A stretch of 64,000 nucleotides of DNA, taken from Escherichia virus TH44. The position numbers and the translations under genes were made by a program. The stretch's first letter is position 1; each line of letters begins with the position of its first letter. The notes under the pieces are model-generated. The model saw nothing but the letters and a program-made list of their open reading frames with translations, did not search any database and was not told the origin of the DNA. This document shows positions 9-27,311 of this stretch, one piece after another. The DNA lies in the sequence record MT446415.1. One strand, given 5' to 3'.

Positions 9-1037
9 ATGTCATATATTGATAGAGAATTTGCAGTCAGAGCTTTATCGTATCAACCACGTTATAGAGAAGTCACCGGGAGCACATTTAAAGCAAACTG
101 TCGTTGCAAGGTTTGTGGGGACTCCCAGAAAGATTCACACAAGGCTCGATTCTGGGCGTATACTAATCCGGCTGATGGCGCGGTTTACGTGAAATGTTTT
201 AACTGTGACTACTCCACGCATATAAGCAAATACATAAAAGAGTTTGAGCCGGATTTACACCGGGAATATATGGTCGAGAAGTATAAGGAGAATGCCTTTG
301 GGCGGCAACGTACTGAAGTTACAGAAGCTCCGAAAGAACCAGAAAAAACTCCGGTTATTGAGCAGCTTGCTTTTTGTGAAAGACTCGATACTTTACCAGA
401 AGCACATCCGATAGTTAAGTATGTAAAAAGTCGATGTATTCCGAGCAATGTTTGGAACCGACTATGGTTTACAAACCAATGGCCTGCATTAGTTAACTCC
501 GTTAATCCTGGGACGTATAAGAATGAAACGAATGAACCACGCTTGGTTATTCCTATCTTCAACGGCAAAAAAGAAATCGAATCTTTCCAAGGACGAGCTC
601 TTCGCAAAGATGCACCACAAAAATATATCACAATCAAAGCTCACCCAGAAGCTTCCAAAGTCTATGGCGTAGACAAGATTGATGAGCGTAAACGCGTATG
701 GGTAATGGAAGGTCCGATTGATAGTTTGTTTATCCCTAACAGCATTGCGATAACCGGTGGAACATTAGCATTAGAAGCTGTTCCTTATCCAGAAACCAGA
801 GTATGGGTGATGGACAACGAGCCAAGACATCCGGATACGATTAAACGTATGAAGAAGCTCGTTGAAGCTGGCGAAGCTGTTATGTTCTGGGACAATGCAC
901 CATGGCATACGAAAGACATAAATGAGATGGTTAAATCAGAAGGGGCAACCCCTGAACAAATCGAATCATATATGGCCGATAACGTTGCTCAAGGATTGAT
1001 GGCGAGAATGCGACTTTCGAAGTACGCAAAAGTTTAG
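9..1037 (+). CDS. 61: DNA primase (T4 gp61 family)
   Basis: 342 aa with SD; N-terminal zinc ribbon CRCKVCGDS...CFNCDYS then TOPRIM-like acidic motifs (VMEGPID, VMDNEP); same length and map position as T4 gp61. Confidence 0.9.
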   Translation: MSYIDREFAVRALSYQPRYREVTGSTFKANCRCKVCGDSQKDSHKARFWAYTNPADGAVYVKCFNCDYSTHISKYIKEFEPDLHREYMVEKYKENAFGRQRTEVTEAPKEPEKTPVIEQLAFCERLDTLPEAHPIVKYVKSRCIPSNVWNRLWFTNQWPALVNSVNPGTYKNETNEPRLVIPIFNGKKEIESFQGRALRKDAPQKYITIKAHPEASKVYGVDKIDERKRVWVMEGPIDSLFIPNSIAITGGTLALEAVPYPETRVWVMDNEPRHPDTIKRMKKLVEAGEAVMFWDNAPWHTKDINEMVKSEGATPEQIESYMADNVAQGLMARMRLSKYAKV

Positions 1038-1234
1038 GAAGGGATTCCGGTAAAGTAACCGATGATGGAATGGATATGTTCCATTGTGACCTGAGGTAAG
1101 TGTACCCCTTGTGTTGCAGCGATAGGCACAACCAGTAAGTTCCACAGGAAAACATCAAGAGCTAAAAAGCCCATGATGAGCTTCTTGTCTTTCTTACTGG
1201 TTAATTTCCAAATCTGATAGAATAATGTTCCCAT
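1034..1234 (-). CDS. small single-pass membrane protein, paralogue of 1243-1440
   Basis: 66 aa, ATG start with SD AGGTGG; one hydrophobic helix (LALDVFLWNLLVVPIAA); antisense to flanking early genes; 3-prime end overlaps primase stop. Confidence 0.5.
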   Translation of the reverse strand: MGTLFYQIWKLTSKKDKKLIMGFLALDVFLWNLLVVPIAATQGVHLPQVTMEHIHSIIGYFTGIPS

Positions 1235-1242
1235 AGTTCCAC

Positions 1243-1440
1243 CTATACAAGGCCGATTAATGCCAGTGAAACATCTACAACTGATTCGAGCGCGACGACT
1301 GGCAATATAATACCATGTGTCAATGCGACAGGGGCAACAATGAAGTTCCAGAGTAGAACTGAACAGAGTACCGAAAGGACCAGAATCGTTCGCTTACGAC
1401 TGCCTTTGATGGCTTGAATTAGACTAGATAGTTTTAGCAT
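1243..1440 (-). CDS. small single-pass membrane protein, paralogue of 1034-1234
   Basis: 65 aa from the internal ATG (track start is TTG); perfect SD AAGGAGG 5 nt upstream; hydrophobic core LVLSVLCSVLLWNFIVAPVAL aligns with the neighbouring ORF. Confidence 0.5.
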   Translation of the reverse strand: MLKLSSLIQAIKGSRKRTILVLSVLCSVLLWNFIVAPVALTHGIILPVVALESVVDVSLALIGLV

Positions 1441-1524
1441 ACATCCTCCTTTCTTGTATTTATGCTTCAAACCAATACGATATAATTAACATACAAACAA
1501 CATGAATTGATAAGGAAAAATATA

Positions 1525-2043
1525 ATGGCTCATTTTAACGAGTGTTCTCAACTGATTGCTGGTGTTGATAAAGCTCAAGGCGCTTATGATAATGCAATTT
1601 TTGAAGGCACTGACCCACTGCAAGTTATGCTTGATATGCAGAAATCATTGCAGGTTCGTCTGGCTAAAGAAAAACCAGAATATAACGAACATCCTGATAA
1701 CCTGGCGACTGCTGGTGAAGTTGTTACCTGGCTCCGCAACCAGAAAGATTATATTGATGATGAATTCCGTGAACTGATTACTGCATTAGGTGGCATGTCC
1801 AATGGCGAGAAAGCTGCCTCGGCCGTATGGAAACCGTGGAAAGCACAACATGGCGAAATGCAGCAAACCCTGATTAATGATTTATCTCCTGAAGACCAGC
1901 TCGAAATTAAATTCGAAATGATTGATATTCTCCATTTCGTTCTGAACATGTTCCATGGCCTTGGACTGACTGCAGAAGAAATCTTTAAACTGTATTACCT
2001 GAAAAACGCTGAGAACTTTGCTCGTCAAGACCGAGGCTATTAA
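1525..2043 (+). CDS. 56: dCTP pyrophosphatase (T4 gp56-like, MazG-type)
   Basis: 172 aa from ATG at 1525 (track start is TTG); begins MAHFNEC as recalled for T4 gp56; same size; position downstream of primase. Confidence 0.75.
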   Translation: MAHFNECSQLIAGVDKAQGAYDNAIFEGTDPLQVMLDMQKSLQVRLAKEKPEYNEHPDNLATAGEVVTWLRNQKDYIDDEFRELITALGGMSNGEKAASAVWKPWKAQHGEMQQTLINDLSPEDQLEIKFEMIDILHFVLNMFHGLGLTAEEIFKLYYLKNAENFARQDRGY

Positions 2044-2074
2044 TACTAATAAATAAGTCATGTAATTAATAAAA

Positions 2075-2320
2075 ATGGAGAATTGCATGGCTTATGTTAA
2101 TATCAAAACAGCTACCCGTGATGTCACCGGTGGTACTGTCGAAGGCAAAGAAATTTCCATTGATTTTACTCTGTATTCAGATGTCCATAAAATTGCGGGC
2201 TCTCACTACCAGACTTTCCCTTCTAAAGATGCAGCATATTCTACCGTTTTTGAAAAGGCTGACAGGGAGGCATGGATTGCAGCAAACGAAGACATTTTTA
2301 AAGTAACCCCGGCGGCATGA
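2075..2320 (+). CDS. hypothetical protein
   Basis: 81 aa ORF; alternative ATG at 2087 has a GGAG SD; followed by an intrinsic terminator. Confidence 0.45.
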   Translation: MENCMAYVNIKTATRDVTGGTVEGKEISIDFTLYSDVHKIAGSHYQTFPSKDAAYSTVFEKADREAWIAANEDIFKVTPAA

Positions 2321-2333
2321 TAGATTAATTATA

Positions 2334-2360
2334 GGGAACCTTCGGGTTCCCTTTTTGCTT
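2334..2360 (+). terminator. rho-independent terminator
   Basis: GGGAACC-TTCG-GGTTCCC stem-loop followed by a T-run. Confidence 0.65.
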
Positions 2361-2404
2361 TTAATAGAGATGGTATAATTATCTCAACTACAGAGGAGAA
2401 TACT

Positions 2405-2602
2405 ATGTTAAACCGTTGGATTAAACCGAATAAAACTTTAGACGAAGTTATTGCCCATGATGTACATTTTAAGTATGGTCTGGGTGCGTTTGATGAGGTT
2501 ATCGTGCACTCGTTCATGATGCACGATGATGATTCTTTAGAATTCAATATTGAAATCCGTTGTGATGATGGTAAAGTTGAATTTAAACGAGGTTTCTTAT
2601 GA
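2405..2602 (+). CDS. hypothetical protein
   Basis: 65 aa, ATG with SD GAGGAG; upstream extended -10 TGgTATAAT. Confidence 0.45.
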   Translation: MLNRWIKPNKTLDEVIAHDVHFKYGLGAFDEVIVHSFMMHDDDSLEFNIEIRCDDGKVEFKRGFL

Positions 2603-2940
2603 TTAGTTGGCTCAAGAATTTATTCAAGACTAAACCGAATGAAGGTATGCTTCCTGTTAGCATACCGGATGTTAAACTAAGAGAATATGTTTACATGGGT
2701 GATGGCATGATGGAAGAAGTGGTCAAATCAAAATCAAAAGACCTATATTCTACAATGTCAGAAGAAGACTTACAAAAACGTTTAACTCGACTACAAGAAC
2801 AAAGAGCTCAAGCGCAAAGCAGTATCGATACTACTTCGATTGTGGTTACCGCCGCTGCAGTTAGTTCGTGGACCGGTGATTCGTCTTATTCCTCCTATGA
2901 TTCAGGAAGCTGCGATTCGTCTTCCAGCTCGTGTGATTAA
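2599..2940 (+). CDS. hypothetical protein with Ser/Cys-rich C-terminal tail
   Basis: 113 aa; start overlaps upstream stop (ATGA); C-terminus SSYSSYDSGSCDSSSSSCD. Confidence 0.45.
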   Translation: MISWLKNLFKTKPNEGMLPVSIPDVKLREYVYMGDGMMEEVVKSKSKDLYSTMSEEDLQKRLTRLQEQRAQAQSSIDTTSIVVTAAAVSSWTGDSSYSSYDSGSCDSSSSSCD

Positions 2941-3277: not shown

Positions 3278-3760
3278 ATGAAAGTATACGAATTAGAATT
3301 CTACGTCCGTGATTCGGCAGGTCAAACACGACCTTACGATGCTACCGCATGTCTTATCATGGTTTACAATGGCATGGATTCGGTTACCGAATTGGAAACA
3401 AAATTAATGAACCTGACGATGCCGGAAAACGTTATGATGAAAGTATTTCATAGAAAAAACGTTAATGTGGCCGAAGGGTGTCCGTTTACTGTTTCTGAAG
3501 CTCTGCACATCAAAGGCTATCGTCACCCAGACCTTTATGGCGAAGATATCATTTTCTATAAAGATAGAGATAAAATGGCCACTGAACGTCTTCAAGGTCG
3601 CACATATCTGATTTCCACTACCGACGACCTTGCTGAAGTTGAACGTCAGATTTGGAAGCACTTTGATATCGGCTTGCGCTTTACTTTAACAGAAGAAGCT
3701 ATTCAAGATACTAAAATGCGCGCTCGTATGTATGGTTACGGTCCTATCGGTGGCTACTAA
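3278..3760 (+). CDS. hypothetical protein (at the T4 mrh position)
   Basis: 160 aa, SD AAGAGGA; size and position between 56 and the mod genes fit T4 mrh, sequence not verified. Confidence 0.45.
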
Positions 3761-3935
3761 TGGATTTATTTGAACTTTTTGAAGAGCCTAAAGCTCCTAC
3801 AGAAGCCCGCGTGGACCTAGTTGACGAACTTGATGCGATTATACAGAAGCATGGTTTTAGTCTCCCAATGGAAGTTCTGCGCGACCTGGCCTCATATTAC
3901 GACGACCCACCTCCATGGGCACCATGGGTGAAACG

Positions 3936-4169: not shown

Positions 4170-4225
4170 TTTACTTACTCCCCTCCTAATGACATAATGG
4201 TCTTTCTTACAACAGAGAGACCATT

Positions 4226-4786
4226 ATGAACATCATCAAATCTGATACCGAACCCAACCAGTTAAAATTTAGTGAAATGGAGATAGCTTCATTATTTGAA
4301 TGCCGCACATCAAAGGTTGATAAGACCTTGCATTCAAACATCAACGCAATCATCAAGTCAAGGTTGTCTATACCTGATACAGTCTTGTATCGTGGGGTCA
4401 CCCAACAAGAGATTGATTTGTTAGATGAAGCAAAAGAATCAATGCAACCTTTTGAATTTGGACGGATAACCTCCTTTACAGAAGACTATGGTATTGCCAG
4501 GGATTTTGCTGCAATGGAATATGTGTCAAGGACTATCATCAGATTGAATCAGACCAAAGCTTTTTGTTACCATGATGCGATGCGCAAAATCGCGCTTGAC
4601 GTCCCACTGGAATTCTTCAATACTGCTTCTGGTTCCGAACAGGCAGCAACGTTAAGACGTGAAGAATACATGGACATGATTGATTCTGAGCTTGAATGGT
4701 TTGTTCCAGTTGACCAGAAATTCGTGGTGGTTGATGCTGGATTTGTTGGTGATTATTATGTTCTTGACTGTGTACAAGAGCTATAA
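4226..4786 (+). CDS. ADP-ribosyltransferase, ModA/ModB family
   Basis: 186 aa; ordered R-S-E motifs LYRG, ITSFTEDY, SELEWFVP; position upstream of dda as in T4 modA/modB. Confidence 0.7.
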   Translation: MNIIKSDTEPNQLKFSEMEIASLFECRTSKVDKTLHSNINAIIKSRLSIPDTVLYRGVTQQEIDLLDEAKESMQPFEFGRITSFTEDYGIARDFAAMEYVSRTIIRLNQTKAFCYHDAMRKIALDVPLEFFNTASGSEQAATLRREEYMDMIDSELEWFVPVDQKFVVVDAGFVGDYYVLDCVQEL

Positions 4787-14297: not shown

Positions 14298-16532
14298 ATG
14301 ATTTTAGAAACTGAAAAGGAAACAATCCTTGGTAATGGCGCCAAGGCATCAGCATTCACAATCCAGGCATCTCCGAAGGTGTTTAAGATTCTGACCAGCG
14401 ACCTTTATACAAACAAGGTGCGCGCGGTTGTCCGTGAGCTGATTACCAATATGATTGATGCTCATATGCTCAATGGCTGTCAGGATAAATTCATTGTGCA
14501 AGCTCCTGGTGAACTGGACCCACGTTTTGTATGCCGTGACTTCGGTCCGGGTATGAGTGATTTCCAGATTCGTGGTGATGAAAATACCCCAGGTCTGTAT
14601 AACAGTTTCTTTGCATCATCCAAGGCTGAATCCAACGATTTTATTGGTGGCTTTGGTCTGGGTTCTAAATCTCCGTTTAGTTATACAGAGACGTTTAGCC
14701 TGATTTCATATCATGATGGACAAGTTAATGGTTATGTCGCTTATATGGACGGCGATGGTCCACAGATTAAGCCAACCTTTAGCGAACCAATGAAACCTGG
14801 TGACCGCACAGGGATTGAAGTTGTTGTCCCGGTTGATAGTAATGATTTCGGTAAGTTCCGTTATGAGATTGCATATATCATGCGTCCATTTGCTGGGCTG
14901 GCTGAAGTGCAAGGCGTGAACGAAATTGAATACTTCCCGGAATTTGATGATTATTATGCTCCAGCGCGTATTAATTATAGCAGTCCAGAACGTTATGGAC
15001 TTTATGCAATTTACGGCGGTATTGTTTATCCGATTGGTGACGGTTATACAAAGAAAACCTGGATGACTGCCAAAAATGATGTTGTCTTTATTAAGTTCCC
15101 GATGGGTTCGTTGGATATTGCACCTTCTCGCGAAGCATTATCGCTGGACAAACGTACGGTCGCAAATATCGTTGAACGTATTGAATCGCTTGATAAGAAG
15201 GTCATGGAAGATGATTGTAAGAAATGGCAGGAATCAGAATGTCTCCGCCATACATATCGCGAATTGCAGAGTCTGAATTATGAAGCTCGTAATTTTCTGA
15301 AAGCTCGTAATGCTGAAACGAAATTTACGAAATCACAATTGACCTTTAACCAGATGTACGAAATGTTCGAGCTGGACAAAGACCTTATTAATGCCGGGGT
15401 TGTCTATGATATCTATAGCACTACTCGTCTGAAACGTCTGCGTAACTCAAGCTCGAACACGAATACTGCAAGCCTGACAAGCATGTTTGGTATTCATAAT
15501 GATACCTTGAATATTGTTATTGACGATGCTAAAGGGCGAATTGCGATGATTCGGGGCATCAGTTCAATGCTGTATGACACCAGCGCGAAAGCCAAAAAGC
15601 TCAAAGCATCTGGTAAAGTCCCGACTGTACAAGGTAGTAGTCTATTGTTCGTTGACCCAACCAGCGAAATTCAAACACGGTTGATGGTTCAACTCCAGGA
15701 ACGATTTAAAGGCGATACGGTTAATATCTATCGTACGTCTGAACTGACTGCCCTTGTAAAAGACTGGATTCCGGTTGCGGACCCGAAAGAGCGTGTTAAG
15801 TCAAAGACTCCATCGGTGATTCGTTGGACTAAAACCAATGGTCGCTGGCAGTCTGTTGAAGAATTTACATGTGCAGCTGATGCAGAGGAAATCGATGGTT
15901 ATGCTGTATTCATTAACCGCAGTAGCATTTCCCCTTTGAATCAAGAATATGGCACCACGACCTTCGGTACCCAGACATTGTGTAAACTGGCGAATCTATT
16001 GGAAATCAATGAATTCTGTGTTATTCGTCCACAGCTTCAGAAAAAGGTTACAAAGCTGGCGCAGTGCGATTGTCTGATTGAAGCTGCAGTCAATCGTTAT
16101 GTGGAATTGATTGATGCGGTTGATGCGGACCAGTACATTGCCGCTTCAAGCCGTTCGCGTTATTATATTCCTATCCTGTCTGAATATGCAGAACTGAATT
16201 TTATGTTCAAGTATTTTTATGCGAAAGATGTTCAGAAAGATGTGAATACTGATTATGCCGAACTAATGCAGTTCAATAAGTTCTTTGCTTATAACGCATA
16301 TAACAGTGGAACGGTTGATAAGACCATGCAGGAAACGCTGGTCCTTTGTAATAAGATTTATGACGACCTGACCAAAAACGCTTCGGTAACAAGCGATAAA
16401 ATGGTTTTTGAATTTGAAAAGAATCACCCGATTGTTTCACACTTTTTATATAACCGTAACGCTATGTCAACTGAACAAGTACAGAACGTTGCTCAAATCA
16501 TGAAGGCCGTGGAAGCGGCCAATAAGGAATAA
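14298..16532 (+). CDS. rIIA: rIIA membrane-associated protein
   Basis: 744 aa (T4 rIIA about 725); N-terminal GHKL-type ATPase-like region; immediately followed by rIIB as in T4. Confidence 0.8.
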   Translation: MILETEKETILGNGAKASAFTIQASPKVFKILTSDLYTNKVRAVVRELITNMIDAHMLNGCQDKFIVQAPGELDPRFVCRDFGPGMSDFQIRGDENTPGLYNSFFASSKAESNDFIGGFGLGSKSPFSYTETFSLISYHDGQVNGYVAYMDGDGPQIKPTFSEPMKPGDRTGIEVVVPVDSNDFGKFRYEIAYIMRPFAGLAEVQGVNEIEYFPEFDDYYAPARINYSSPERYGLYAIYGGIVYPIGDGYTKKTWMTAKNDVVFIKFPMGSLDIAPSREALSLDKRTVANIVERIESLDKKVMEDDCKKWQESECLRHTYRELQSLNYEARNFLKARNAETKFTKSQLTFNQMYEMFELDKDLINAGVVYDIYSTTRLKRLRNSSSNTNTASLTSMFGIHNDTLNIVIDDAKGRIAMIRGISSMLYDTSAKAKKLKASGKVPTVQGSSLLFVDPTSEIQTRLMVQLQERFKGDTVNIYRTSELTALVKDWIPVADPKERVKSKTPSVIRWTKTNGRWQSVEEFTCAADAEEIDGYAVFINRSSISPLNQEYGTTTFGTQTLCKLANLLEINEFCVIRPQLQKKVTKLAQCDCLIEAAVNRYVELIDAVDADQYIAASSRSRYYIPILSEYAELNFMFKYFYAKDVQKDVNTDYAELMQFNKFFAYNAYNSGTVDKTMQETLVLCNKIYDDLTKNASVTSDKMVFEFEKNHPIVSHFLYNRNAMSTEQVQNVAQIMKAVEAANKE

Positions 16533-17541: not shown

Positions 17542-17739
17542 ATGTTAGGTTTCCAAGCACGTGTAGTTGAAGAACATGACCAGTTGGTTTTGAAAATTAA
17601 TGCTCTTGAAGAATTTATTAAAGGCGGTGTTTTTGAAACTCTCGATGCTCGTCAACAAGGTCTTTTGATTGCACAACTCGATGCGATGGGTGCTTATGCT
17701 CATGTACTGGCAGTCCGTATCTCTTATTTTGGTGAATAA
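17542..17739 (+). CDS. hypothetical protein
   Basis: 65 aa, SD GAGG. Confidence 0.4.
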   Translation: MLGFQARVVEEHDQLVLKINALEEFIKGGVFETLDARQQGLLIAQLDAMGAYAHVLAVRISYFGE

Positions 17740-17742
17740 ATT

Positions 17743-18063
17743 ATGATTAACTATATGAACGTTGGCGATGAATCTATTAACGAAATTCGATTGCATGGTA
17801 ATCATGTTGCGGATATTGTTTATTGTGTTGATTGTCATTATGCTTCTACAAAGTCAACTGGCCGGTTATATGCGAGAGACATCATTCTTGCAACGAAAGA
17901 AGAACTTCGTAGTCTGGACCATTCTACTCTAGCCGAAAGTGTCAGAATTTATTATGGCGTCGTTCATGTAGACAAAGTTTATATTGGCAGTGATTATCAA
18001 GAGCAAGCTGAGCAAAATTCTTTGGATACTGTCGAAAAATCCGATATGTATTTTAAAGGATGA
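17743..18063 (+). CDS. hypothetical protein
   Basis: 106 aa ORF. Confidence 0.4.
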   Translation: MINYMNVGDESINEIRLHGNHVADIVYCVDCHYASTKSTGRLYARDIILATKEELRSLDHSTLAESVRIYYGVVHVDKVYIGSDYQEQAEQNSLDTVEKSDMYFKG

Positions 18064-18067
18064 GCTG

Positions 18068-18661
18068 ATGATTCAGAAGAGTAAAACATGGGAGCATCTG
18101 AAAAAGATGCCCTCCTTCCTTTATACAAAGGAAGACTTAACCCCCGAATCCCTGCAAAAGATTGTAGACACTGCCAGGTATTCATTGCGTAAAGACCCAG
18201 GTCAGGACCGTGAGCAAGTCATGCAAAGATGTATGGTAGCCACAATGGCTGAACAAGCTATTGCTAAATGGACCTCCGGTTTTTTATGTGGCGGTGATGA
18301 AGATTACGATAATCCTTACTCCTTTGCATTTGATGTAGTTTCGAAGGAAGGGGTAAGAATCGAAGTCAAGACTCATCAGTCTGGTTCCAAATGGATATCC
18401 GTACATACTGGCCACCAGGGCGATTATCCACATGGTTACGGGGTTAATCTTGGTCCCTTTATGCAGCACAAGCTTGCTGACCTTATGATTATGTTTAATG
18501 TAAAAGAGACTCTCAAAGGTTATAGATTTAAACCAAAATTCCTTGCTGGGCCTGGTGCTTTCGTTCCTGAGTCTGGTCTTGTGCAGAAGTCACAAGGGGA
18601 TGGTTGGTACCTCCGTTCTTGTTCAGAAGAAAAATTTCCCTATCACCGGTTTACAAGCTGA
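18068..18661 (+). CDS. putative PD-(D/E)xK-type nuclease (possible denB equivalent)
   Basis: 197 aa from internal ATG; FAFDVV...VRIEVKTH fits D...ExK; lies in the rIIB-to-ndd interval where T4 has denB. Confidence 0.4.
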   Translation: MIQKSKTWEHLKKMPSFLYTKEDLTPESLQKIVDTARYSLRKDPGQDREQVMQRCMVATMAEQAIAKWTSGFLCGGDEDYDNPYSFAFDVVSKEGVRIEVKTHQSGSKWISVHTGHQGDYPHGYGVNLGPFMQHKLADLMIMFNVKETLKGYRFKPKFLAGPGAFVPESGLVQKSQGDGWYLRSCSEEKFPYHRFTS

Positions 18662-18673
18662 ACCAACCATGTA

Positions 18674-18707
18674 ATAATGTCCTCACACCAACAAATGAGG
18701 ACATTAT
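18674..18707 (+). promoter_or_regulatory. RBS-sequestering hairpin
   Basis: perfect 12 bp inverted repeat ATAATGTCCTCA / TGAGGACATTAT with 10 nt loop; SD GAGGA lies in the 3-prime arm, ATG at 18709. Confidence 0.55.
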
Positions 18708-18708
18708 C

Positions 18709-18984
18709 ATGGAACACGTTACTACTCACAACATCAAACAAATTCTTATCCAAGCACTCAAAAACAACAACATCAATTTTCCAACCCATGAAATTTTTGA
18801 TGTGGCATTCAACGAAGTCCAGGGTCAAGTTGCATATTATGACGTTATCGTTTATCTTTCAGAATTTGAAGTCTACCACCTGACTGAAATTGCTTTCTAT
18901 CTCTATCGTGGAACAGCAGATTTCACTGGGGTTGTGAATGCAGTTGGTGCATATAAAGAAGTTAAAGAACAAATGCACAATTAA
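18709..18984 (+). CDS. hypothetical protein
   Basis: 91 aa from internal ATG directly after the hairpin. Confidence 0.45.
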   Translation: MEHVTTHNIKQILIQALKNNNINFPTHEIFDVAFNEVQGQVAYYDVIVYLSEFEVYHLTEIAFYLYRGTADFTGVVNAVGAYKEVKEQMHN

Positions 18985-18985
18985 T

Positions 18986-19050
18986 TAAAAAGTAGTGTAC
19001 ATCAGTATGGAGTCTATGTATAATGATTCCATACTGAGTTACCAAACAGA
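18986..19050 (+). promoter_or_regulatory. T4-type early promoter cassette
   Basis: AAAAAGTAGTGTACA, 18 bp, TATAAT, then TTCCATACTGAGTTACC; ATGGA/TCCAT inverted repeat around -10. Confidence 0.6.
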
Positions 19051-19062
19051 CTGGAGAATAAA

Positions 19063-19218
19063 ATGAAACCTGCTCAATATGCAATGACTTTATACCTTGA
19101 AGTTAATGGCGATATTACTGAATTTTTTAAATTAATGCAACAGCGCGGAAAAAGTTTTGCAGTTACTGAGCGTCAATTTTACGCTTGCCGTAAAAATACA
19201 TACAATCGTTATGCGTGA
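19063..19218 (+). CDS. hypothetical small protein
   Basis: 51 aa, not in track; SD GGAG after cassette. Confidence 0.35.
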   Translation: MKPAQYAMTLYLEVNGDITEFFKLMQQRGKSFAVTERQFYACRKNTYNRYA

Positions 19219-19228
19219 GGAAAACAAA

Positions 19229-19489
19229 ATGGATATCAAATTATATTACGCCAAGCACAAAGTTACAGGTAAAGTTGTTGCTGCCATGTATGATGCATCG
19301 GGTGAAGATGTTATTACGGAATTATCCCTTTCTAATTGTAGATTTCTTCGTCCTTTGATAGCGTCAAAAAAAGATTTACAAAAACTTATCGACGGTAAAT
19401 TAGATAATGTCGATGGTATAGATATCCATTATGAACTCCGCCATGCACTGAATGATGGGTTTATGGAAATAAAAGAGATAGTATTATGA
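19229..19489 (+). CDS. hypothetical protein
   Basis: 87 aa from internal ATG with SD GAGGA. Confidence 0.4.
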   Translation: MDIKLYYAKHKVTGKVVAAMYDASGEDVITELSLSNCRFLRPLIASKKDLQKLIDGKLDNVDGIDIHYELRHALNDGFMEIKEIVL

Positions 19490-19571
19490 GCAGCAAAACC
19501 TGGTGTCTTATCTGGATATTGTGTATCCCAGTAATTTGCGTTTGTTTTAGTTTATTATTAATGAAACTTGC

Positions 19572-19630
19572 ATAAAAAAGTGTACATCTCCAGTGGTTGT
19601 AGTATAATGAACCTATCAACTACTGGAGAT
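19572..19630 (+). promoter_or_regulatory. T4-type early promoter cassette
   Basis: AAAAAGTGTACA, 17 bp, TATAAT, then CTATCAACTACTGGAG. Confidence 0.6.
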
Positions 19631-19634
19631 GATT

Positions 19635-19751
19635 ATGAAAAAGTTACTTAAAGCTATTTGGAACATGTTTGTGCTGTTTGTTGTCCTGAGCATTTTCCCA
19701 ATTGTTTTTATGATTGACCATGTGCGTGTTTACTTTAACTATTTCTTTTGA
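19635..19751 (+). CDS. small membrane peptide
   Basis: 38 aa, not in track; hydrophobic core NMFVLFVVLSIFPIVFMI. Confidence 0.3.
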   Translation: MKKLLKAIWNMFVLFVVLSIFPIVFMIDHVRVYFNYFF

Positions 19752-19761
19752 GGATAATATT

Positions 19762-19968
19762 ATGAATTACAATTCACACTTTCAGAAATCCAATCGTCGC
19801 TTTGACTTTATGTTCAAGTTTATTGTAGCAATGATTATCCTGATTTTCATTGGTGCCATTGCAATGATTGGTTTCCAGGTCTGGATTGCTGCTGAAGTAT
19901 TCACCCAAATCCAGGATAATGGTTTGAAGTCTGTTGTTGATGTAATTTGGAATGGAGCTAAGCAATGA
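19762..19968 (+). CDS. small membrane protein
   Basis: 68 aa, SD GAGGA; hydrophobic FKFIVAMIILIFIGAIAMIGF. Confidence 0.4.
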   Translation: MNYNSHFQKSNRRFDFMFKFIVAMIILIFIGAIAMIGFQVWIAAEVFTQIQDNGLKSVVDVIWNGAKQ

Positions 19969-20210
19969 AACTTTTTAAAGACATTGCAGTTGGTGAAAAA
20001 TTTGTCCTGGGTAATGGTCAACAACTGATTCGCATTTCGCCTTTAATGGATAACAGTGAACGCCCTGTGCGCACTGAAAACTGTTTGGATTATCCTTTTT
20101 ATCAGAAGCGTTTTGCAATTGAAAATAATACTGAGTGTTTCACAGTTGATGAACTGATGGAATCATCAGAAGAAGTTGACTTGTGGGATGGCGCAGTTGA
20201 TGTAGAATAG
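19965..20210 (+). CDS. hypothetical protein
   Basis: 81 aa; TAG stop is part of the next cassette. Confidence 0.4.
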   Translation: MKLFKDIAVGEKFVLGNGQQLIRISPLMDNSERPVRTENCLDYPFYQKRFAIENNTECFTVDELMESSEEVDLWDGAVDVE

Positions 20211-20270
20211 TGTACAAACTCTTGGGAGCAGAGTATAATGCTCCCAGTGGATAATAAAATTTAACTGAGG
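20208..20270 (+). promoter_or_regulatory. T4-type early promoter cassette with hairpin around -10
   Basis: TAGTGTACAAACTCTT-GGGAGCA-gagTATAAT-GCTCCC; perfect 7 bp inverted repeat. Confidence 0.65.
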
Positions 20271-20278
20271 AAATCATT

Positions 20279-20623
20279 ATGTCTAAAGTATTTTTTGGTA
20301 ATCGCAACATTATGTTCTTTAAACAGATTAGCGTATCAGAAGCATTTGATTTAAGTTATTCGGGCGGCACAAAAGCTGTTAACCTTAAAAATTTGATGTC
20401 TGCAGAATTTGCATTCTATCAGGACCCTGAAACTGGTTTCTACAAATTTATTAAGTTCCGCATGACTATGGACCGCGATTATCGTGATGTTTATTATACA
20501 AGTTATGAAAGTGTTGTGAATGCAATTCGTGAAGCTTATGGATTGGATTCGTTATCTCTTGACCGCCTGTATAATGCAAGCCTTTACACCAGCGGATTTA
20601 TTTTAGAACAGCTTCAAAAATAG
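20279..20623 (+). CDS. hypothetical protein
   Basis: 114 aa; TAG stop embedded in next cassette. Confidence 0.45.
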   Translation: MSKVFFGNRNIMFFKQISVSEAFDLSYSGGTKAVNLKNLMSAEFAFYQDPETGFYKFIKFRMTMDRDYRDVYYTSYESVVNAIREAYGLDSLSLDRLYNASLYTSGFILEQLQK

Positions 20624-20690
20624 TGTACAAACTCTTGGGGTCAGAGTATAATGACCCCACTGGAGCACAAAACTTTAACTTACTGAGGAA
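20621..20690 (+). promoter_or_regulatory. T4-type early promoter cassette with hairpin around -10
   Basis: TAGTGTACAAACTCTT-GGGGTCA-gagTATAAT-GACCCC; arms differ from the 20208 copy by two compensatory pairs. Confidence 0.65.
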
Positions 20691-20696
20691 ATTAAT

Positions 20697-21146
20697 ATGA
20701 ATACTTACATGACCCGTCGTGACGTACTGAATGCTGGCGCTACCACTGTTGCTTACATCCATAATGGTAATTATGTCGCCGGTCGCCCAACTAAAGAAGC
20801 TATCACCCAACCGGGTTTTTATTTTGTAGTTAAGGGTGAAGGTGAATCGCGTATTGTTGCGGCACGTTTTTACGTTGGTAACCAACGTTCACAACAAGGG
20901 TTTGACACTGTATTAAGTCACATCCGCAAACAGCGTTCACAACTGTCGCGCACAATGGCGAACAATGGTGTTATCTATGAAGTTCTGTTTGTTCCGGTTT
21001 CTAAAATGAAGCCTCTGACAACTGGTTATGGTAAAGGTCAAATTGCAATGGCGTTCACTCGCTCACATAGTTCTGATTGCCAGACCCTTTCAGAAATGAA
21101 TCGCATGCTTGCTGATAACTTTAAATTCATTCTGCAGAGCTATTAA
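20697..21146 (+). CDS. ndd: nucleoid disruption protein Ndd-like
   Basis: 149 aa (T4 Ndd 151); position between rIIB and stp/52; sequence resemblance from recall only. Confidence 0.45.
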
Positions 21147-21147
21147 T

Positions 21148-21321
21148 ATGAGACATTTCTTTACAATGGGTTACTTATTTGTTTTAGCACTATTTGTTAT
21201 TACAGGAGCCTTTATAGCCTTTGGCGCTCCATTTAATGATAAAGTTGCTGTTACTATGTGCTTTAGTGGCGGATTTATCTGTTTTGAACGTTTATGTAAA
21301 ATGTGTGGTATATATGAGTAA
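21148..21321 (+). CDS. small membrane protein (T4 ac position)
   Basis: 57 aa from internal ATG; hydrophobic [18 protein letters not shown]. Confidence 0.35.
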
Positions 21322-21394
21322 TTTCCATAATGAACATGTGATGCAATGGCATCGCCATAATCTGAAATTAACTGGCGTCTTTGGACGCCCTTGA
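21314..21394 (+). CDS. stp: Stp-like 26-residue peptide
   Basis: 26 codon [29 protein letters not shown], not in track; length and sequence resemble recalled T4 Stp; position upstream of 52. Confidence 0.55.
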
Positions 21395-21401
21395 GGAAAA
21401 T

Positions 21402-21560
21402 ATGATTATTCTGGCTTTTATCGAACTTATTATTGCCGTGGTTTGTTCAGTCTGCTTCTTTTTAGGAGTCTGGACTCCAAGCACATTTTTCATGGGCGCG
21501 ATGTTTATTGCATGGGTTATTTCTGGAATTGTAAGTCTGGCGCGGTATGCGAAAAAATGA
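21402..21560 (+). CDS. small membrane peptide
   Basis: 52 aa, SD GAGGAAAA; two hydrophobic segments. Confidence 0.35.
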   Translation: MIILAFIELIIAVVCSVCFFLGVWTPSTFFMGAMFIAWVISGIVSLARYAKK

Positions 21561-21697
21561 TTAAGAAAATCTTGGGCTACTCGTTAGCCCTTGCTGCCTT
21601 ATTGGTAGCGCTGTATTATGGAGTTGTATTTGCATTAGTGCAGGTTGTGCTTTTTATTTCTGATGCTATAATGGCAGTACATTCGTTAATCTGGTAA
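21557..21697 (+). CDS. small membrane peptide
   Basis: 46 aa from internal ATG of track ORF; hydrophobic LALAALLVALYYGVVFALVQVVLFI. Confidence 0.35.
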   Translation: MIKKILGYSLALAALLVALYYGVVFALVQVVLFISDAIMAVHSLIW

Positions 21698-21705
21698 GGT
21701 GATAT

Positions 21706-23085
21706 ATGTCTGACGTTTTAAGTATGATGTCCAAACAGTTCAGTGATTCCATGGGGACCCTTAACCCACGCAGTCTAAAAGACATTATTGATGTGGAAGC
21801 ATTATCATATGCTATCTACACTGTGGAAGGTCGCGCAATCCCAAACATGATTGATGGTTTTAAACCAGTTCACAGATTTGTTATGGCGAGAGCATTAGAC
21901 CTGGCACGTGGTGATAAGAATAAATTCCATAAGGTTGCATCCATCGCAGGTGGCGTAGCTGATTATGGTTATCACCATGGCGAAGCATCAGCGGAAGAAG
22001 CAACTTCTGGTCTGGTCGCAACATATAAAAATGAATACCCCATGTTTGATGGACAAGGCAACTTTGGTTCCAGAATGGTGCCAGAAGCATCATCAGCTCG
22101 TTATGTATTCGCACGGGTTTCAAAGAACTTTTATAACTTGTTTAAGGATACAGAATATGCTCCGGTCCATCCTGATGAAGAACATAAGCCTCCTGCTTTT
22201 TATCTTCCTGTTATTCCTACTGTATTACTTAACGCCACTTCTGGGATTGCTGTTGGCTTCGCTACTGATATTCTGCCTCATTCGTTCCAGGACGTCAAGG
22301 AAGCTGTTAAAGCTATCGTGGAAGGTCGGGAGCCGGTTGCTCCGAAAGTAAAATATCCAGAATTCCGCGGTAAAGTTGTTGAGCTGGAAGAGCCTGGTAA
22401 GTATGAGCTTCATGGCACGTACAAAATGACTTCCAGGACCCAAATGGAAATTACTGAAATCCCGGTCCAATGGAACCTGGAAAAGTATACAAGTAAAATC
22501 CTGGACCCGCTGGAAGAGAAAGGTTTTATCACCTGGAAAGATAACTGCGGCGAGCATGGTTTTGGGTTTAAGATTAAATTCCGCAAAGAATACAAGCTGG
22601 ATGGCACCGAAGAAGAAAATCATGAGAAAATCATGAAAGACTTTGGTCTGATTGAGAAGCTCTCCCAGAACTTAACAGTGCTTAATCACAAAGGCAAGCT
22701 GGCTGAATACACCAACACGCTTGACCTGATTCGTGATTTCGTTGATGTCCGTAAGACTTATGTTCAAGTGCGAATTGACAGTAAGATTAAAGAAACTGAA
22801 GCGGCATTTAAACTGGCCCGGGCAAAAGTCTTCTTTATTAAAGAAGTGATTGATGGTAAAGTTGTTATCCAGGGGAAACCTCGTAAGAAGTTGATTGAGG
22901 AACTCCAGGCGAGTGAAATATATGGCGATTATGCAGAGAAGTTAGTGGCGATGAACATCTACCATATGACCTCTGATGAAGCTAAGAAGCTTGCGGATGA
23001 AGCTAAGGCTAAGAAAGCTGAGCATGAGTACTGGAAGACAACTGACGTTAAAACTGAATATCTTAATGATTTGGAGGCTCTATGA
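21706..23085 (+). CDS. 52: DNA topoisomerase II medium subunit (GyrA-like)
   Basis: 459 aa; long colinear match to recalled T4 gp52 (IPNMIDGFKPV, QGNFGS, YAPVH, active-site Tyr region). Confidence 0.9.
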   Translation: MSDVLSMMSKQFSDSMGTLNPRSLKDIIDVEALSYAIYTVEGRAIPNMIDGFKPVHRFVMARALDLARGDKNKFHKVASIAGGVADYGYHHGEASAEEATSGLVATYKNEYPMFDGQGNFGSRMVPEASSARYVFARVSKNFYNLFKDTEYAPVHPDEEHKPPAFYLPVIPTVLLNATSGIAVGFATDILPHSFQDVKEAVKAIVEGREPVAPKVKYPEFRGKVVELEEPGKYELHGTYKMTSRTQMEITEIPVQWNLEKYTSKILDPLEEKGFITWKDNCGEHGFGFKIKFRKEYKLDGTEEENHEKIMKDFGLIEKLSQNLTVLNHKGKLAEYTNTLDLIRDFVDVRKTYVQVRIDSKIKETEAAFKLARAKVFFIKEVIDGKVVIQGKPRKKLIEELQASEIYGDYAEKLVAMNIYHMTSDEAKKLADEAKAKKAEHEYWKTTDVKTEYLNDLEAL

Positions 23086-23171
23086 GCATAGAAAATGAAT
23101 ACGCAGTGATTTGTGCTGCTGTAGCTGGCCTGTTGATTGCCTGGGTTATTGGCAAAGTGATTGATTCTTAA
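23082..23171 (+). CDS. small membrane peptide
   Basis: 29 aa overlapping gp52 stop (ATGA); hydrophobic; low confidence. Confidence 0.25.
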   Translation: MSIENEYAVICAAVAGLLIAWVIGKVIDS

Positions 23172-23176
23172 AAACT

Positions 23177-23204
23177 AGGACCCTTCAGGGTCCTTTTTTA
23201 TTTT
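23177..23204 (+). terminator. rho-independent terminator
   Basis: GGACCC-TTCA-GGGTCC plus TTTTTTATTTT. Confidence 0.7.
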
Positions 23205-23206
23205 AA

Positions 23207-23285
23207 AAAAGTAGTGTACAATCCCCTTGTCTTAGGACATAATGATTCCATACTGAGTTACACAATGAATCACAAAAACTTTGGA
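23207..23285 (+). promoter_or_regulatory. T4-type early promoter cassette
   Basis: AAAAAAGTAGTGTACAA, 18 bp, CATAAT, GATTCCATACTGAGTTACAC. Confidence 0.6.
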
Positions 23286-23292
23286 GAATAAA

Positions 23293-23508
23293 ATGTTTAC
23301 TGCACAACAGAATGAAGGTCAAGAATACATCAACGCTAAATTCAAATCTAACAAAGAAGCTTGCTATTACTACTTTGATATGTTCAAACTGGCGAATTCT
23401 AAAGAAGAACGTAAACAAGCGATTGATGTGATTGTTTCTACTTCCCATATGAAACGTACTGTAGTACAATCATATGCATCAAATTACATGAAATCTATTA
23501 AGGGATAA
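23293..23508 (+). CDS. hypothetical protein
   Basis: 71 aa from ATG with SD GGAGA (track start TTG). Confidence 0.45.
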   Translation: MFTAQQNEGQEYINAKFKSNKEACYYYFDMFKLANSKEERKQAIDVIVSTSHMKRTVVQSYASNYMKSIKG

Positions 23509-23510
23509 TT

Positions 23511-24119
23511 GTGAACAAGTTAAATTATATCGTTAAATGCTCCCAGAACGCGCTGCATGAGACTGATGTTAATGCTCTGGTGTTTGTATACAAAAACAAC
23601 TTCGTGAGTCCAGAGGTTGTTTTAGACCAGCAGAATACATCAATTGATAGTGTGCAGACATTGTTGAATAACAACTATGTTGAAGCTTCTGGTGATGGTT
23701 TGATGGTTACAGAAAAGGGTGTTGACCTTATTCTGGATGCAGCTGAACTTTGGGCGAATGAAAATAATCCTGACCTTCTGGAAGTGAAGAAGACAAGAAC
23801 AAAACGCGGTGTGACTGATGAAATGGAAGCGACTGCAGAATATATCAAAGAGCAATTGTTGTCTATTGGTATTGACTTTAAGAGCATTTCAGAAGACCGC
23901 AGCAATCTGATTGTGAAGTTCAAGCGTGTCAAGACATTAAAACAGATTGATGTTCGTCGTGATGGTCAGATTCGCGTACATGCGTATAATACTGAACAAA
24001 AGATAGTAAAACAGTTTACAGACGTGGGATTTAGCGTTAAAGTAGGTGGATTGAATACCTACATTGACAACGTTATGTCAACTGAAAACATTCAACATGT
24101 TATTAACATCTTAAAGTGA
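23511..24119 (+). CDS. motA: MotA middle-transcription activator
   Basis: 202 aa, GTG start with SD; colinear with recalled T4 MotA (KDNF, SGDGL, KQFTDVGFS). Confidence 0.8.
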   Translation: MNKLNYIVKCSQNALHETDVNALVFVYKNNFVSPEVVLDQQNTSIDSVQTLLNNNYVEASGDGLMVTEKGVDLILDAAELWANENNPDLLEVKKTRTKRGVTDEMEATAEYIKEQLLSIGIDFKSISEDRSNLIVKFKRVKTLKQIDVRRDGQIRVHAYNTEQKIVKQFTDVGFSVKVGGLNTYIDNVMSTENIQHVINILK

Positions 24120-24126
24120 GGAAATT

Positions 24127-24459
24127 ATGAATAAGCTGAATATTGTTAATGAATTGCGTGCTTGTGTAGAACCTACTCAAGAGGGTTGGGATGTTTGGTA
24201 TCATGGCGCTTACCTTGGAACTATTGTCAAGGTCAAAGCTGGTCAGTATCTTATCCATCGTCAGGATGATGCAGTAGCTCCGTTTGGTGCACGCAAGAAC
24301 TTCATGGCAGCGATTGGTGCCTTTGTTCCAGCAGCATATGAAGTATATAAAGCTGACTACAAAGAATATCAGGAATCACAACCAGTTATTCGCTCAATTG
24401 GTGTTAATAAAGCTCAACAGAAAAGTCTGTGGCAACGTGTTAAAGGTTGGTTCAAATGA
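24127..24459 (+). CDS. hypothetical protein
   Basis: 110 aa, SD GAGGAAA. Confidence 0.45.
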
Positions 24460-24944
24460 ATCCATTAAAAGGTAAAGAATTATCCTTTAAAGACCGTATG
24501 GCCTTATTGGATAAAGCTCTTTCTCGCGAGACTCCCGAAAGTCTCGCTGCTAAATTACGGGCATATGGTGATTACACCGAATATACTGAAGAAGATGTTC
24601 TGGAAGAGGTTCCGGAAATCTGTTGGCAGATTGCTCATTGGAACAACAATGAAAAATATCAGCGCCGGATTGTATGCGCTGCCAACCGCTTTAAGTTAAA
24701 AGATGGTGGGACTCTGGTTATTCCTGGTGCCAGACATTATTCCAAGGATATGGCAGAAGTGCTTGACCAGGTAAGTGATAAACTTGTGTCAGACCATGTT
24801 TGTGGTGATAACCAAGGGTTTATTGACCAATACAGCAATTACTGGACCCGTGAAGAAGCAATGATTATTGCGACTTATGCAAATCAGGTGCGTATTGAAC
24901 GTGGCGGTAGTGAGAAAGAACTTTATTCAGAGGACCTTTATTAA
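24456..24944 (+). CDS. hypothetical protein
   Basis: 162 aa from internal ATG. Confidence 0.4.
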
Positions 24945-25222
24945 TGAACCTTAAACAACTCCAAATTGATGCAATCGAAAACCATATCAATCATATCAAA
25001 CGTCTGAACACCATGATGGAAGACAACTGGGGAACTTATGTTAACCAGCCGGCTTGGGATGCGTTAGACCATGAATATATAAAGGATATTAGTGATAACA
25101 CGTATAGAGTTAGAGAAGGTCTGAAACCCTTCCTGCGTGATATGTATATTGCAACAAATAAAGCAATTATTAACTATCTTGAATACAAATTAAGGGAATT
25201 GCATGAACAACCTGGTAGCTAA
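24944..25222 (+). CDS. hypothetical protein (size of T4 Arn, unverified)
   Basis: 92 aa; lies in the motA-asiA interval where T4 has arn; no sequence confirmation. Confidence 0.35.
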   Translation: MNLKQLQIDAIENHINHIKRLNTMMEDNWGTYVNQPAWDALDHEYIKDISDNTYRVREGLKPFLRDMYIATNKAIINYLEYKLRELHEQPGS

Positions 25223-25534
25223 GCACGATTTCAATAAGGCGTCTGTCCATAAGGATAAGAAGAAAACTGAAATGCAGTCCAAACGTAAGCAGAAGCACAA
25301 GGGGAATCACTATGAGTCATAACTTAGAGAACACCATCACTGGTCAGCGTACACGCGAGCAGGCTTGCTTTGAGGAATTCCTTGGAGCTGATTTTAAGTT
25401 CCAGGAACCAGTTGAACAGATGTATCAGGAATATGTTGTACAGATGGAAAATCATGTGTACAACCCAGAGGAATAATAGTACAATATCCTTACTGAATAA
25501 TTGAATGTCTTATTGAATACTTGAGTAAATTAAA

Positions 25535-25810
25535 ATGACTAAATTTGAAATCGTTTCTGAAATTGTTACTGTAACTTCAATTTTGATTAAAACCGACCGG
25601 GAAGATATTACGATGAAGCGTGATGTGTTTATCGCGTTTTTGAATGAGTTGGGATTGAGGAATGAGAATGGTAATGAGTTAAACAATGTATCGTTTAACA
25701 AGTTGTTTAAAAGTTTATCTGAAGATGAAATTGAACAAATCATTGAACAATTTAACGAAGGATTCGAAGATATACACCGTTATCTTATGATGTATACCTC
25801 CGGATTCTAA
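25535..25810 (+). CDS. asiA: AsiA anti-sigma70 factor
   Basis: 91 aa; colinear with recalled T4 AsiA (VTSILIK, REDI, FIAFLNE, EQFNEGFE, HRYL). Confidence 0.85.
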   Translation: MTKFEIVSEIVTVTSILIKTDREDITMKRDVFIAFLNELGLRNENGNELNNVSFNKLFKSLSEDEIEQIIEQFNEGFEDIHRYLMMYTSGF

Positions 25811-26460: not shown

Positions 26461-26478
26461 ACTTTTCTCCTTTAAAGA

Positions 26479-26486
26479 TATTTATA
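26479..26486 (-). promoter_or_regulatory. late promoter TATAAATA for t
   Basis: TATAAATA on minus strand about 20 nt upstream of t start, followed by SD AAAGGAGA. Confidence 0.55.
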
Positions 26487-26497
26487 GCGCTTATGTA

Positions 26498-27280: not shown

Positions 27281-27291
27281 ATAAACCTCCA

Positions 27292-27307
27292 AGGGGCCGA
27301 AGCCCCT
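27292..27307 (-). promoter_or_regulatory. intercistronic UUCG hairpin between 37 and 38
   Basis: AGGGGC-TTCG-GCCCCT on the transcribed strand, immediately upstream of gp38 SD. Confidence 0.4.
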
Positions 27308-27311
27308 CTTA

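Follow-up and report, generated by a model that had tools for sequence, protein, structure and literature searches.

The 64,000-nucleotide (nt) stretch of Escherichia virus TH44 DNA analysed here (sequence record MT446415.1; called the window in what follows) carries two tandem open reading frames (ORFs) on the minus strand, ORF-A and ORF-B, between the genes for the DNA primase gp61 and the dCTPase gp56. We found that both are real genes under purifying selection. Comparisons of sequence and synteny indicate that the gene family to which they belong, phrog_2024, is conserved at the primase locus across T4-type phages and doubled in Gaprivervirus, and that the pair is not the inserted module for which the original prediction had taken it. 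Promoter motif and hydropathy make it likely that the products are expressed late and inserted into a membrane; a role in lysis or at the envelope is the function that we rank first, if only tentatively.

ORF-A (66 amino acids (aa), ATG start; 1034..1234, minus strand; MGTLFYQIWKLTSKKDKKLIMGFLALDVFLWNLLVVPIAATQGVHLPQVTMEHIHSIIGYFTGIPS) and ORF-B (65 aa from the ATG at 1440; 1243..1440, minus strand; MLKLSSLIQAIKGSRKRTILVLSVLCSVLLWNFIVAPVALTHGIILPVVALESVVDVSLALIGLV) lie inside a 487-bp interval that separates primase (9..1037, plus strand; phrog_47, E 3e-94, and called primase in the annotation of relatives) from dCTPase (1525..2043, plus strand; phrog_173, E 1e-46; Pfam dUTPase_2). The predicted layout of two tandem minus-strand ORFs of 66 and 65 aa between these genes thus agrees with the coordinates and with the PHROG and Pfam assignments of the flanks, and the ORFs of the window confirm that the pair runs against the surrounding early genes. 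Both of the strong Shine-Dalgarno sequences that had been proposed can be read directly in the sequence. AAGGAGG (1445..1451, minus strand) stands 4 nt before the ATG of ORF-B, and its AGGAGG is conserved in all lineages compared; AGGTGG (1239..1244, minus strand) serves ORF-A and overlaps the TAG stop codon of ORF-B. The intercistronic gap is 8 nt long and holds no promoter motif, and gap and Shine-Dalgarno arrangement are identical in UPEC01, MN01, VR25 and VR26. At the other end, ORF-A and primase meet tail to tail at 1034..1037, where the TAA stop codon of the former (1036..1034, minus strand) shares bases with the TAG of the latter (1035..1037, plus strand). A 75-aa form of ORF-B with a TTG start was rejected, since transcription is predicted to begin downstream of this TTG, which also lacks a ribosome-binding site.

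Conservation of the amino acid sequence shows that both ORFs are genes. Pairwise ratios of nonsynonymous to synonymous substitution rates (dN/dS) are 0.0-0.2 for ORF-A; ORF-B gives values of 0.1-0.2 in the majority of Tequatrovirus comparisons and mostly of 0.35-0.6 within Gaprivervirus. ORF-A matches phrog_2024 with E 6e-28 (residues 1-64 on profile positions 1-64 of 65) and ORF-B with E 6.5e-27 (residues 1-65 on positions 1-65 of 65). Taken together, dN/dS and profile matches led us to reject the view that the ORFs are spurious. The two proteins are 40% identical over 42 residues in BLASTP (E 2e-10) and 26% identical over their full length; this similarity and their common phrog_2024 membership bear out the paralogy that had been proposed from a shared core. 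PHROG labels the family 'unknown function', and its members stand as 'hypothetical protein' in hundreds of Tevenvirinae genomes. ORF-A and ORF-B share with these members their length, their place beside primase and a match to the full profile, and differ from them in nothing of kind; most phrog_2024 phages, however, carry a single copy, whereas here two diverged subtypes stand in tandem as one predicted operon.

The alignment of homologues indeed splits the phrog_2024 members of T4-type phages into two subtypes. Subtype A (MGTLFYQIWKL...), which includes ORF-A, occurs in Gaprivervirus, in JS98-type phages and in T4-type phages of Klebsiella, Enterobacter and Pectobacterium (112 records by tblastn); subtype B (M.KL..L..AIKG...), which includes ORF-B, occurs in Gaprivervirus and Tequatrovirus (694 phage records by tblastn). 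Gaprivervirus alone has both together. The genomes nearest to the window are the Gapriverviruses UPEC01, VR20 and MN01 (94-97% identity). MN01 has both ORFs annotated as hypothetical proteins; UPEC01 annotates them too, one as a hypothetical protein and the other as 'DNA packaging ATPase'. ORF-A is 100% identical to the UPEC01 protein QQG30882.1, and the exact sequence of ORF-B has been deposited from NCBI assemblies. The product names 'DNA packaging ATPase' and 'Holin' that some family members bear (in UPEC01, in SAKp28 and VAC36, and in the UniRef entry for OE5505) were rejected as unsupported; two labels on neighbouring genes in UPEC01, 'molybdenum ABC transporter' and 'major capsid domain-containing protein', likewise look like propagated mis-annotations.

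The conservation of the locus becomes evident from T4 itself (NC_000866), where dam on the early strand is followed by an unannotated gap of 310 bp and then by gene 61. This gap holds an ORF of 66 aa (17738..17938, plus strand, opposite to dam) that is 49% identical to ORF-B and has the same W-N..P.A...G..P motif, with GATAAATA and AAAGGAGG upstream and a stop codon overlapping that of gene 61. The RefSeq record leaves it unannotated, and no NCBI protein entry matches it exactly. T4 thus has one copy with dam upstream; in the window, primase and dCTPase enclose two copies, and dam is missing between them. In the 694 subtype B and 112 subtype A records, the gene almost always abuts the 3' end of primase, and the tail-to-tail overlap of stop codons recurs in T4, AR1, JS98-type and Klebsiella phages and in a distant T4-type contig (L030); in a second distant T4-type contig (L022) the family gene has the same position, but one gene lies between it and primase. 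Given the T4 homologue and these records, the gene is ancestral at the primase locus. Furthermore, the leader of the T4 B gene (cgATAAATAttaatttaaAGGAGGA) is almost identical to that of the JS98 A gene, hence A and B behave as alternative forms of one ancestral locus. The order in Gaprivervirus is B first, retaining the promoter, and A second, promoterless.

The original prediction had reasoned that T4 has only same-strand early genes here and that the pair is therefore a recent insertion. The pair does occupy the place of T4 dam in the window, and the T4 reference annotation is blank on the opposite strand, but a recent insertion is highly improbable and is contradicted by the opposite-strand T4 homologue, which shares position, promoter and ribosome-binding-site layout, by the single copy in hundreds of T-even-type phages, by the synteny kept in very distant T4-type contigs and by the near-identical leaders of the two subtypes.

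Late expression is suggested by the sequence upstream of ORF-B. The element CATAAATA (1457..1464, minus strand; 16 nt before the ATG) matches the late-promoter consensus TATAAATA at seven of eight positions, with the mismatch at -13. The late-promoter motif with one mismatch that had been reported upstream of ORF-B is therefore present, and its core is conserved across lineages. This core, NATAAATA, occurs at only 11 sites on both strands of the window, seven of which, that of ORF-B included, sit 16-39 nt before the start of an ORF; others precede soc, the holin gene t (26486, minus strand) and two long ORFs resembling tail-fibre genes. Upstream of the family gene it was found in every T4-type lineage compared (T4, AR1-type, JS98-type, Klebsiella phages and a distant T4-type locus), at a distance of 16-22 nt in five distinct classes of upstream sequence and of 34 nt in contig L022. 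The surrounding upstream sequence differs between lineages despite the conserved core, and the first base preceding it may be T, A, G or C.

A deviation at -13 is not unusual for late promoters. Position -13 is poorly conserved in T4 relatives (PMC1524935), and of 50 T4 late promoters listed, 32 match the consensus fully, nine carry A at -13 and the others show single deviations (PMC2988020). We also observed that soc (2075..2320, plus strand, downstream of dCTPase) is preceded by AATAAATA (2048..2055; A at -13), 19 nt before its ATG; variants at -13 therefore serve a known late gene in the same genome. The predicted transcript start near 1451 would give ORF-B an 11-nt leader that opens with its ribosome-binding site. 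ORF-A has no late-promoter element of its own, and both ORFs are on the same strand as the late genes of the window. We thus propose that ORF-A is probably co-transcribed with ORF-B as one bicistronic late messenger RNA, with translational coupling.

With regard to the proteins, the hydropathy maximum over 19 residues is 2.1-2.4. Hydropathy and charge agree well among 43 family sequences, and the hydrophobic core comprises about 24 residues. The N-terminal segment is charged (net +5 to +6), and the C-terminal 23-24 residues are hydrophobic or acidic, with no basic residue; mean charges across the 43 members are +4.2 for the N flank and -2.2 for the C flank, from which the positive-inside rule predicts an N-in/C-out topology. 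An AlphaFold2 model of ORF-B, built from an alignment of 29 sequences, reached a predicted local distance difference test score (pLDDT) of 83 and shows helices at residues 3-10, 14-41 and 51-61, with the 28-residue helix 14-41 above 90. The C-terminal 23 residues of ORF-B are hydrophobic enough for a second membrane segment, those of ORF-A are not. Hence, the description of both as single-pass membrane proteins is plausible for ORF-A and ambiguous for ORF-B. Structure prediction, which had been suggested as a check, thus provided a long helix for ORF-B; Foldseek searches with this model gave no match in the PDB and, in BFVD, returned family members only.

Family alignments define a signature present in ORF-A and ORF-B, which consists of a basic patch, a hydrophobic helix with a central W/Y-N, a Pro at +5 from the Asn, A...G, and LPxhxh(E/D), h being hydrophobic. 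M1, W31, N32, P37 and G43 are invariant in T4-type members; among 16 diverse members the Pro is invariant and the Asn at least 90% conserved, and the motif persists down to 25% identity. Since Asn32, Ala39 and Gly43 share one face of the modelled helix, we infer that this face mediates helix-helix contacts.

The family extends beyond T4-type phages. When 1.84 billion representative proteins were searched exhaustively with the family profile, 18 matches were obtained, of which 17 are proteins of 33-82 aa with the family signature; the 18th, a 449-aa repeat protein, is spurious. All contigs examined for these matches are phage or prophage-like. Distant members reside in siphovirus-like elements of Enterobacteriaceae, some integrated beside host genes, and a tblastn search with one of them, P0109, added nothing new. 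In these siphovirus-like relatives the family gene is always accompanied by genes for a basic protein of 180-196 aa, which weakly matches phrog_1924 'minor tail protein', and a protein of 99-109 aa. Mostly it comes after endonuclease VII, close to genes for a lambda-J-like tail tip and for a small protein with one transmembrane segment and a coiled coil. In two prophages (L047 and L049) both neighbours overlap it, endonuclease VII on the upstream side and the 180-aa gene on the downstream side, and tail assembly chaperone and tape measure follow in the same-strand block of tail genes. A T4-type lysozyme lies 1-2 kb from the family gene in L025/L033/L034, L028, L029 and L032; in L025/L033/L034 the family gene opens a same-strand run that ends in this lysozyme. 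To judge from gene order, the siphovirus-like members also lie inside late operons, in a context compatible with lysis or morphogenesis.

Apart from the family itself, similarity searches gave little. Pfam, NCBIfam and PADLOC scans of ORF-A, ORF-B, the T4 ORF and two distant members returned nothing meaningful, and a PDB sequence search by family profile returned only noise (E above 0.6). We consider it possible, and the first choice among the readings, that the pair modulates lysis or the envelope. A gp55-type RNA polymerase would start late at CATAAATA (1464..1457) and produce a short-leader bicistronic messenger RNA, ORF-B first and then ORF-A, with the ribosome-binding site of ORF-A overlapping the ORF-B stop. 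The products would be inner-membrane proteins of 65-66 aa with a basic, amphipathic, cytoplasmic N-terminus and one transmembrane helix; their short acidic C-terminal tails would be periplasmic or at the membrane interface, and the tail of ORF-B may re-enter the membrane. Within the membrane, helix association could join copies of one protein, ORF-A to ORF-B, or either of them to a partner membrane protein. As infection ends, such proteins would act as a dispensable accessory factor tuning inner-membrane or envelope integrity, holin-like or holin-modulating. This leaning towards lysis or the envelope derives from proteins that are small, putatively late and membrane-embedded by prediction, and from the lysozyme found close by in several siphovirus-like relatives.

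Several observations weigh against it. The late element departs from the consensus at -13, with C here and G in T4. Neither a Pfam holin family nor any other Pfam, NCBIfam or PADLOC model shows similarity, no solved or predicted structure outside the family is alike, and full-text literature searches and several T4 reviews yielded no mention of the gene family. The charged domain is N-terminal, as opposed to C-terminal in classical holins. T4-type phages already own a full lysis set (T, RI, RIII, lysozyme and spanins), and in the window the pair is not beside lysis genes, holin t starting at 26460. To our knowledge, decades of T4 r-mutant hunts mapped no locus between dam and 61, which argues against a strong role in lysis timing. 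Among the distant relatives, lysozyme is absent from the regions examined around the family gene in L021, L047 and L049, where the constant neighbours are endonuclease VII and the 180-aa and 100-aa proteins, followed by tail chaperone and tape measure; such tail and endonuclease VII neighbours fit morphogenesis as well as lysis.

Small holins (class II or pinholins, e.g. S68 of phage 21) resemble the phrog_2024 proteins in being phage-encoded, 60-80 aa long, late and membrane-embedded, with probable oligomerization through small residues on helix faces; for phrog_2024, late expression and at least one transmembrane domain are predictions. They differ, however, in the placement of the charged domain described above, and in T4-type phages, which use holin T, the family gene is not adjacent to an endolysin. 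In the window it is flanked by primase and dCTPase, and the siphovirus-like relatives give a mixed picture as to endolysin adjacency. A search of Pfam, NCBIfam and PHROG for holins at E up to 1 gave no match for ORF-A or ORF-B. The proteins belong to no described holin family, and they also lack the charged C-terminus and the endolysin adjacency of holins.

Whatever the function, ORF-A seems to be expendable. In VR20 (locus 2696..2910) it has an ATG-TGA nonsense change and a 2-nt deletion that shifts the frame; in SP18 (locus 1209..1320) and RZ (locus 1800..1930) it is cut to its 3' half; and in TH54 it is probably truncated too, the tblastn match covering residues 28-66 only. ORF-B is intact in all Gapriverviruses examined for ORF-A loss. 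Repeated loss of ORF-A together with constraint where it is intact suits an accessory gene of condition-dependent value. We know of no T4 genetic locus at the site of the phrog_2024 gene.

This pattern of loss also speaks for a different function, namely that the proteins act late at the membrane to protect the infected cell, either by blocking the entry of superinfecting DNA or by blunting a membrane-associated host defence triggered by late phage products. ORF-A presence varies among close relatives, and two diverged subtypes have been exchanged at one locus; such variability is typical of host-interaction genes. Small, predicted inner-membrane, phage-only proteins with a conserved intramembrane face are, moreover, analogous to small inner-membrane exclusion proteins. 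HK97 gp15, for example, is a small inner-membrane superinfection-exclusion protein and a YebO-like moron (PMC3594210), which like the prophage members of phrog_2024 is encoded among the tail genes of enterobacterial siphoviruses. HK97 gp15 forms, however, a transcription unit of its own that is active in the prophage, and bacteria have YebO proteins homologous to it, whereas the phrog_2024 gene overlaps both of its neighbours in the prophages and leaves no room for a promoter or terminator of its own; it is thus not a moron expressed from a repressed prophage. For ORF-A and ORF-B, no Pfam match at E up to 1 points to a relationship with YebO or gp15, and PADLOC and Pfam, the YebO, Imm and Spackle families included, gave no match.

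T4 Imm and Sp offer a second comparison, as they are small envelope proteins of T4-type phages and sp lies only a few genes beyond primase. Both are known exclusion genes that lie on the early strand and are expressed early, whereas the phrog_2024 gene has only a late-type promoter; there is also no sequence similarity and no Pfam match to Spackle. Two non-T4 contigs bear on protection in a different way. Directly after the family gene, L031 (325..1383) and L032 (5134..6219) encode a protein of 352-361 aa. The L031 product has a Pfam RelA/SpoT domain (alarmone-synthetase-like) and that of L032 is similar by eye only; these genes are possibly toxin or counter-defence cargo, and their position would suit a protective function. 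Overall, we consider protection unlikely as the primary role. A type I toxin-antitoxin peptide (Hok-, Ldr- or Ibs-like) found no support: neither a Pfam or NCBIfam match nor a recognizable opposite-strand small RNA was found, no Rfam search having been made.

A broader view would be that phrog_2024 constitutes a previously unrecognised class of late phage inner-membrane effectors, reaching from T4 to siphovirus prophages, which oligomerise or clamp a membrane partner via the conserved helix face and thereby control a late step that has not been described. We regard this as speculative and give it a small chance only. If it were true, the step could be a preparation of the membrane for holin triggering, exclusion at a late stage, or the neutralisation of a membrane-bound abortive-infection sensor, and the A/B pair of Gaprivervirus would represent a heteromeric variant or one that broadens the host range.

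The company that the gene keeps in siphovirus-like relatives could also indicate a helper in morphogenesis or DNA processing, i.e. a late membrane anchor or chaperone in, for instance, head or tail assembly or DNA maturation. All these relatives pair it with the 180-196 aa and 99-109 aa proteins, its usual place is after endonuclease VII, in L047 and L049 it stands before tail chaperone and tape measure, and the T4-type copies are under the promoter class of structural genes. No homologue of the 180-aa partner, however, was detectable in T4-type phages by tblastn: the search of phage genomes found only the non-T4 part of record DCP80, and a homologue search found 'hypothetical protein' entries of enterobacterial genomes only. 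Its model is poor (pLDDT 62) and a fold search with it was uninformative, and the 'tail' label is therefore weak. In addition, no T4 amber or temperature-sensitive morphogenesis gene is known to map at the locus, and ORF-A has been lost repeatedly. Such a helper role is rather improbable.

It is also conceivable that transcription rather than the peptides matters, the peptides being secondary to a late antisense shut-off of primase or to an R-loop near oriA. The genes are convergent with primase, their stop codons overlap primase stops in many lineages, and no convincing terminator was found downstream in the primase-abutting lineages. The window does have a weak hairpin, AGGGGTTGCCCCT, followed by a T-poor tail, within the primase coding region about 80 nt 3' of ORF-A (941..953, minus strand), but it is absent in the T4 and Klebsiella-phage lineages and a poor terminator at best. 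Since no conserved terminator follows the gene, late transcription probably continues into primase in antisense orientation. Reviews of T4 describe several sites with transcription of both strands (PMC2988020), a greater late activity of oriA, and a possible priming of replication by R-loops at late promoters (PMC3016281).

On the opposite strand, the late element overlaps by 5 bp a putative MotA box (TTATGCTTCA, 1460..1469) which, with an 11-bp spacer and TATAAT (1481..1486), makes up a probable middle promoter of dCTPase (1460..1486, plus strand); the published consensus is (a/t)(a/t)(a/t)TGCTTtA, 12 +/- 1 bp, TAtaaT (PMC2988021). In AR1-type phages, it is the spacer of the corresponding middle promoter that contains the late element. 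The intergenic region of 84 bp may thus be a compact, time-switched bidirectional control region. A primary role of the transcript is nevertheless very unlikely. The selection acts strongly on amino acids, the residue motif outlasts most of the sequence identity, and a strong ribosome-binding site is conserved. Contig L022, where the neighbour is not primase, has a strong GC-rich hairpin and T run (4205..4235) right after the family gene, between convergent genes, as lineages with the gene abutting primase do not; and in siphovirus-like relatives it lies on the same strand as the genes beside it. The selection on the protein and the L022 terminator together disfavour an antisense or R-loop function, though antisense read-through into primase is still probable as a by-product.

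Some further observations concern the surroundings of the gene. The window has no ORF at 2044..2074 such as the 93-aa ORF that UPEC01 (locus 3543..3824) and MN01 have between dCTPase and soc, and T4 has segF between 56 and soc and dam between 61 and 56; genes are gained and lost with particular frequency in the 61-56-soc interval. RZ has a homing endonuclease gene (locus 1926..2675) between primase and the ORF-A remnant, and the C-terminus of this endonuclease repeats the primase ending ...KYAKV; in DK-13, too, the region matching ORF-A bears the annotation of a homing endonuclease. The 3' end of primase has the appearance of a homing site. A laboratory-evolved T4, T4_ev240 (LR597657.1), gave a tblastn match (16213..16317) that covers ORF-B residues 31-65 only, which could mean that the ORF is damaged or could stem from the alignment filter.

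As to the siphovirus-like relatives, the record DCP80 (PQ671644.1, 141 kb, classed as Gaprivervirus) contains at 18620..29129 a siphovirus-like block with a lambda-J-like tail tip, endonuclease VII, an endolysin and a probable small terminase subunit, and within it an unannotated 57-aa family member (locus L029 4792..4965). The record resembles a chimera assembled from two phages. Beside tail tip or lysozyme, all siphovirus-like relatives also have a protein of 83-153 aa with an N-terminal transmembrane segment and a coiled coil (L021 3260..3544, L025 5643..5918, L028 1771..2022, L029 3853..4314 and L032 2726..2980), an alternative holin or spanin candidate in these phages.

In summary, T4, the reference for the whole phage group, lacks a RefSeq entry for a gene that is conserved in hundreds of relatives and that has all of purifying selection, a conserved late-promoter element, a strong ribosome-binding site and a residue signature. 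If it turned out to encode just another dispensable accessory peptide, the finding would be an ordinary one. Adding the gene to the T4 annotation would nonetheless allow existing T4 transcriptome, proteome and knock-down data to be re-read, and the phages that have A alone, B alone, both, or a lost A are a natural set ready for comparison. As the family is small and phage-specific and occurs in virulent T-even phages as well as in temperate siphoviruses, any phenotype would probably indicate a general late step at the membrane.

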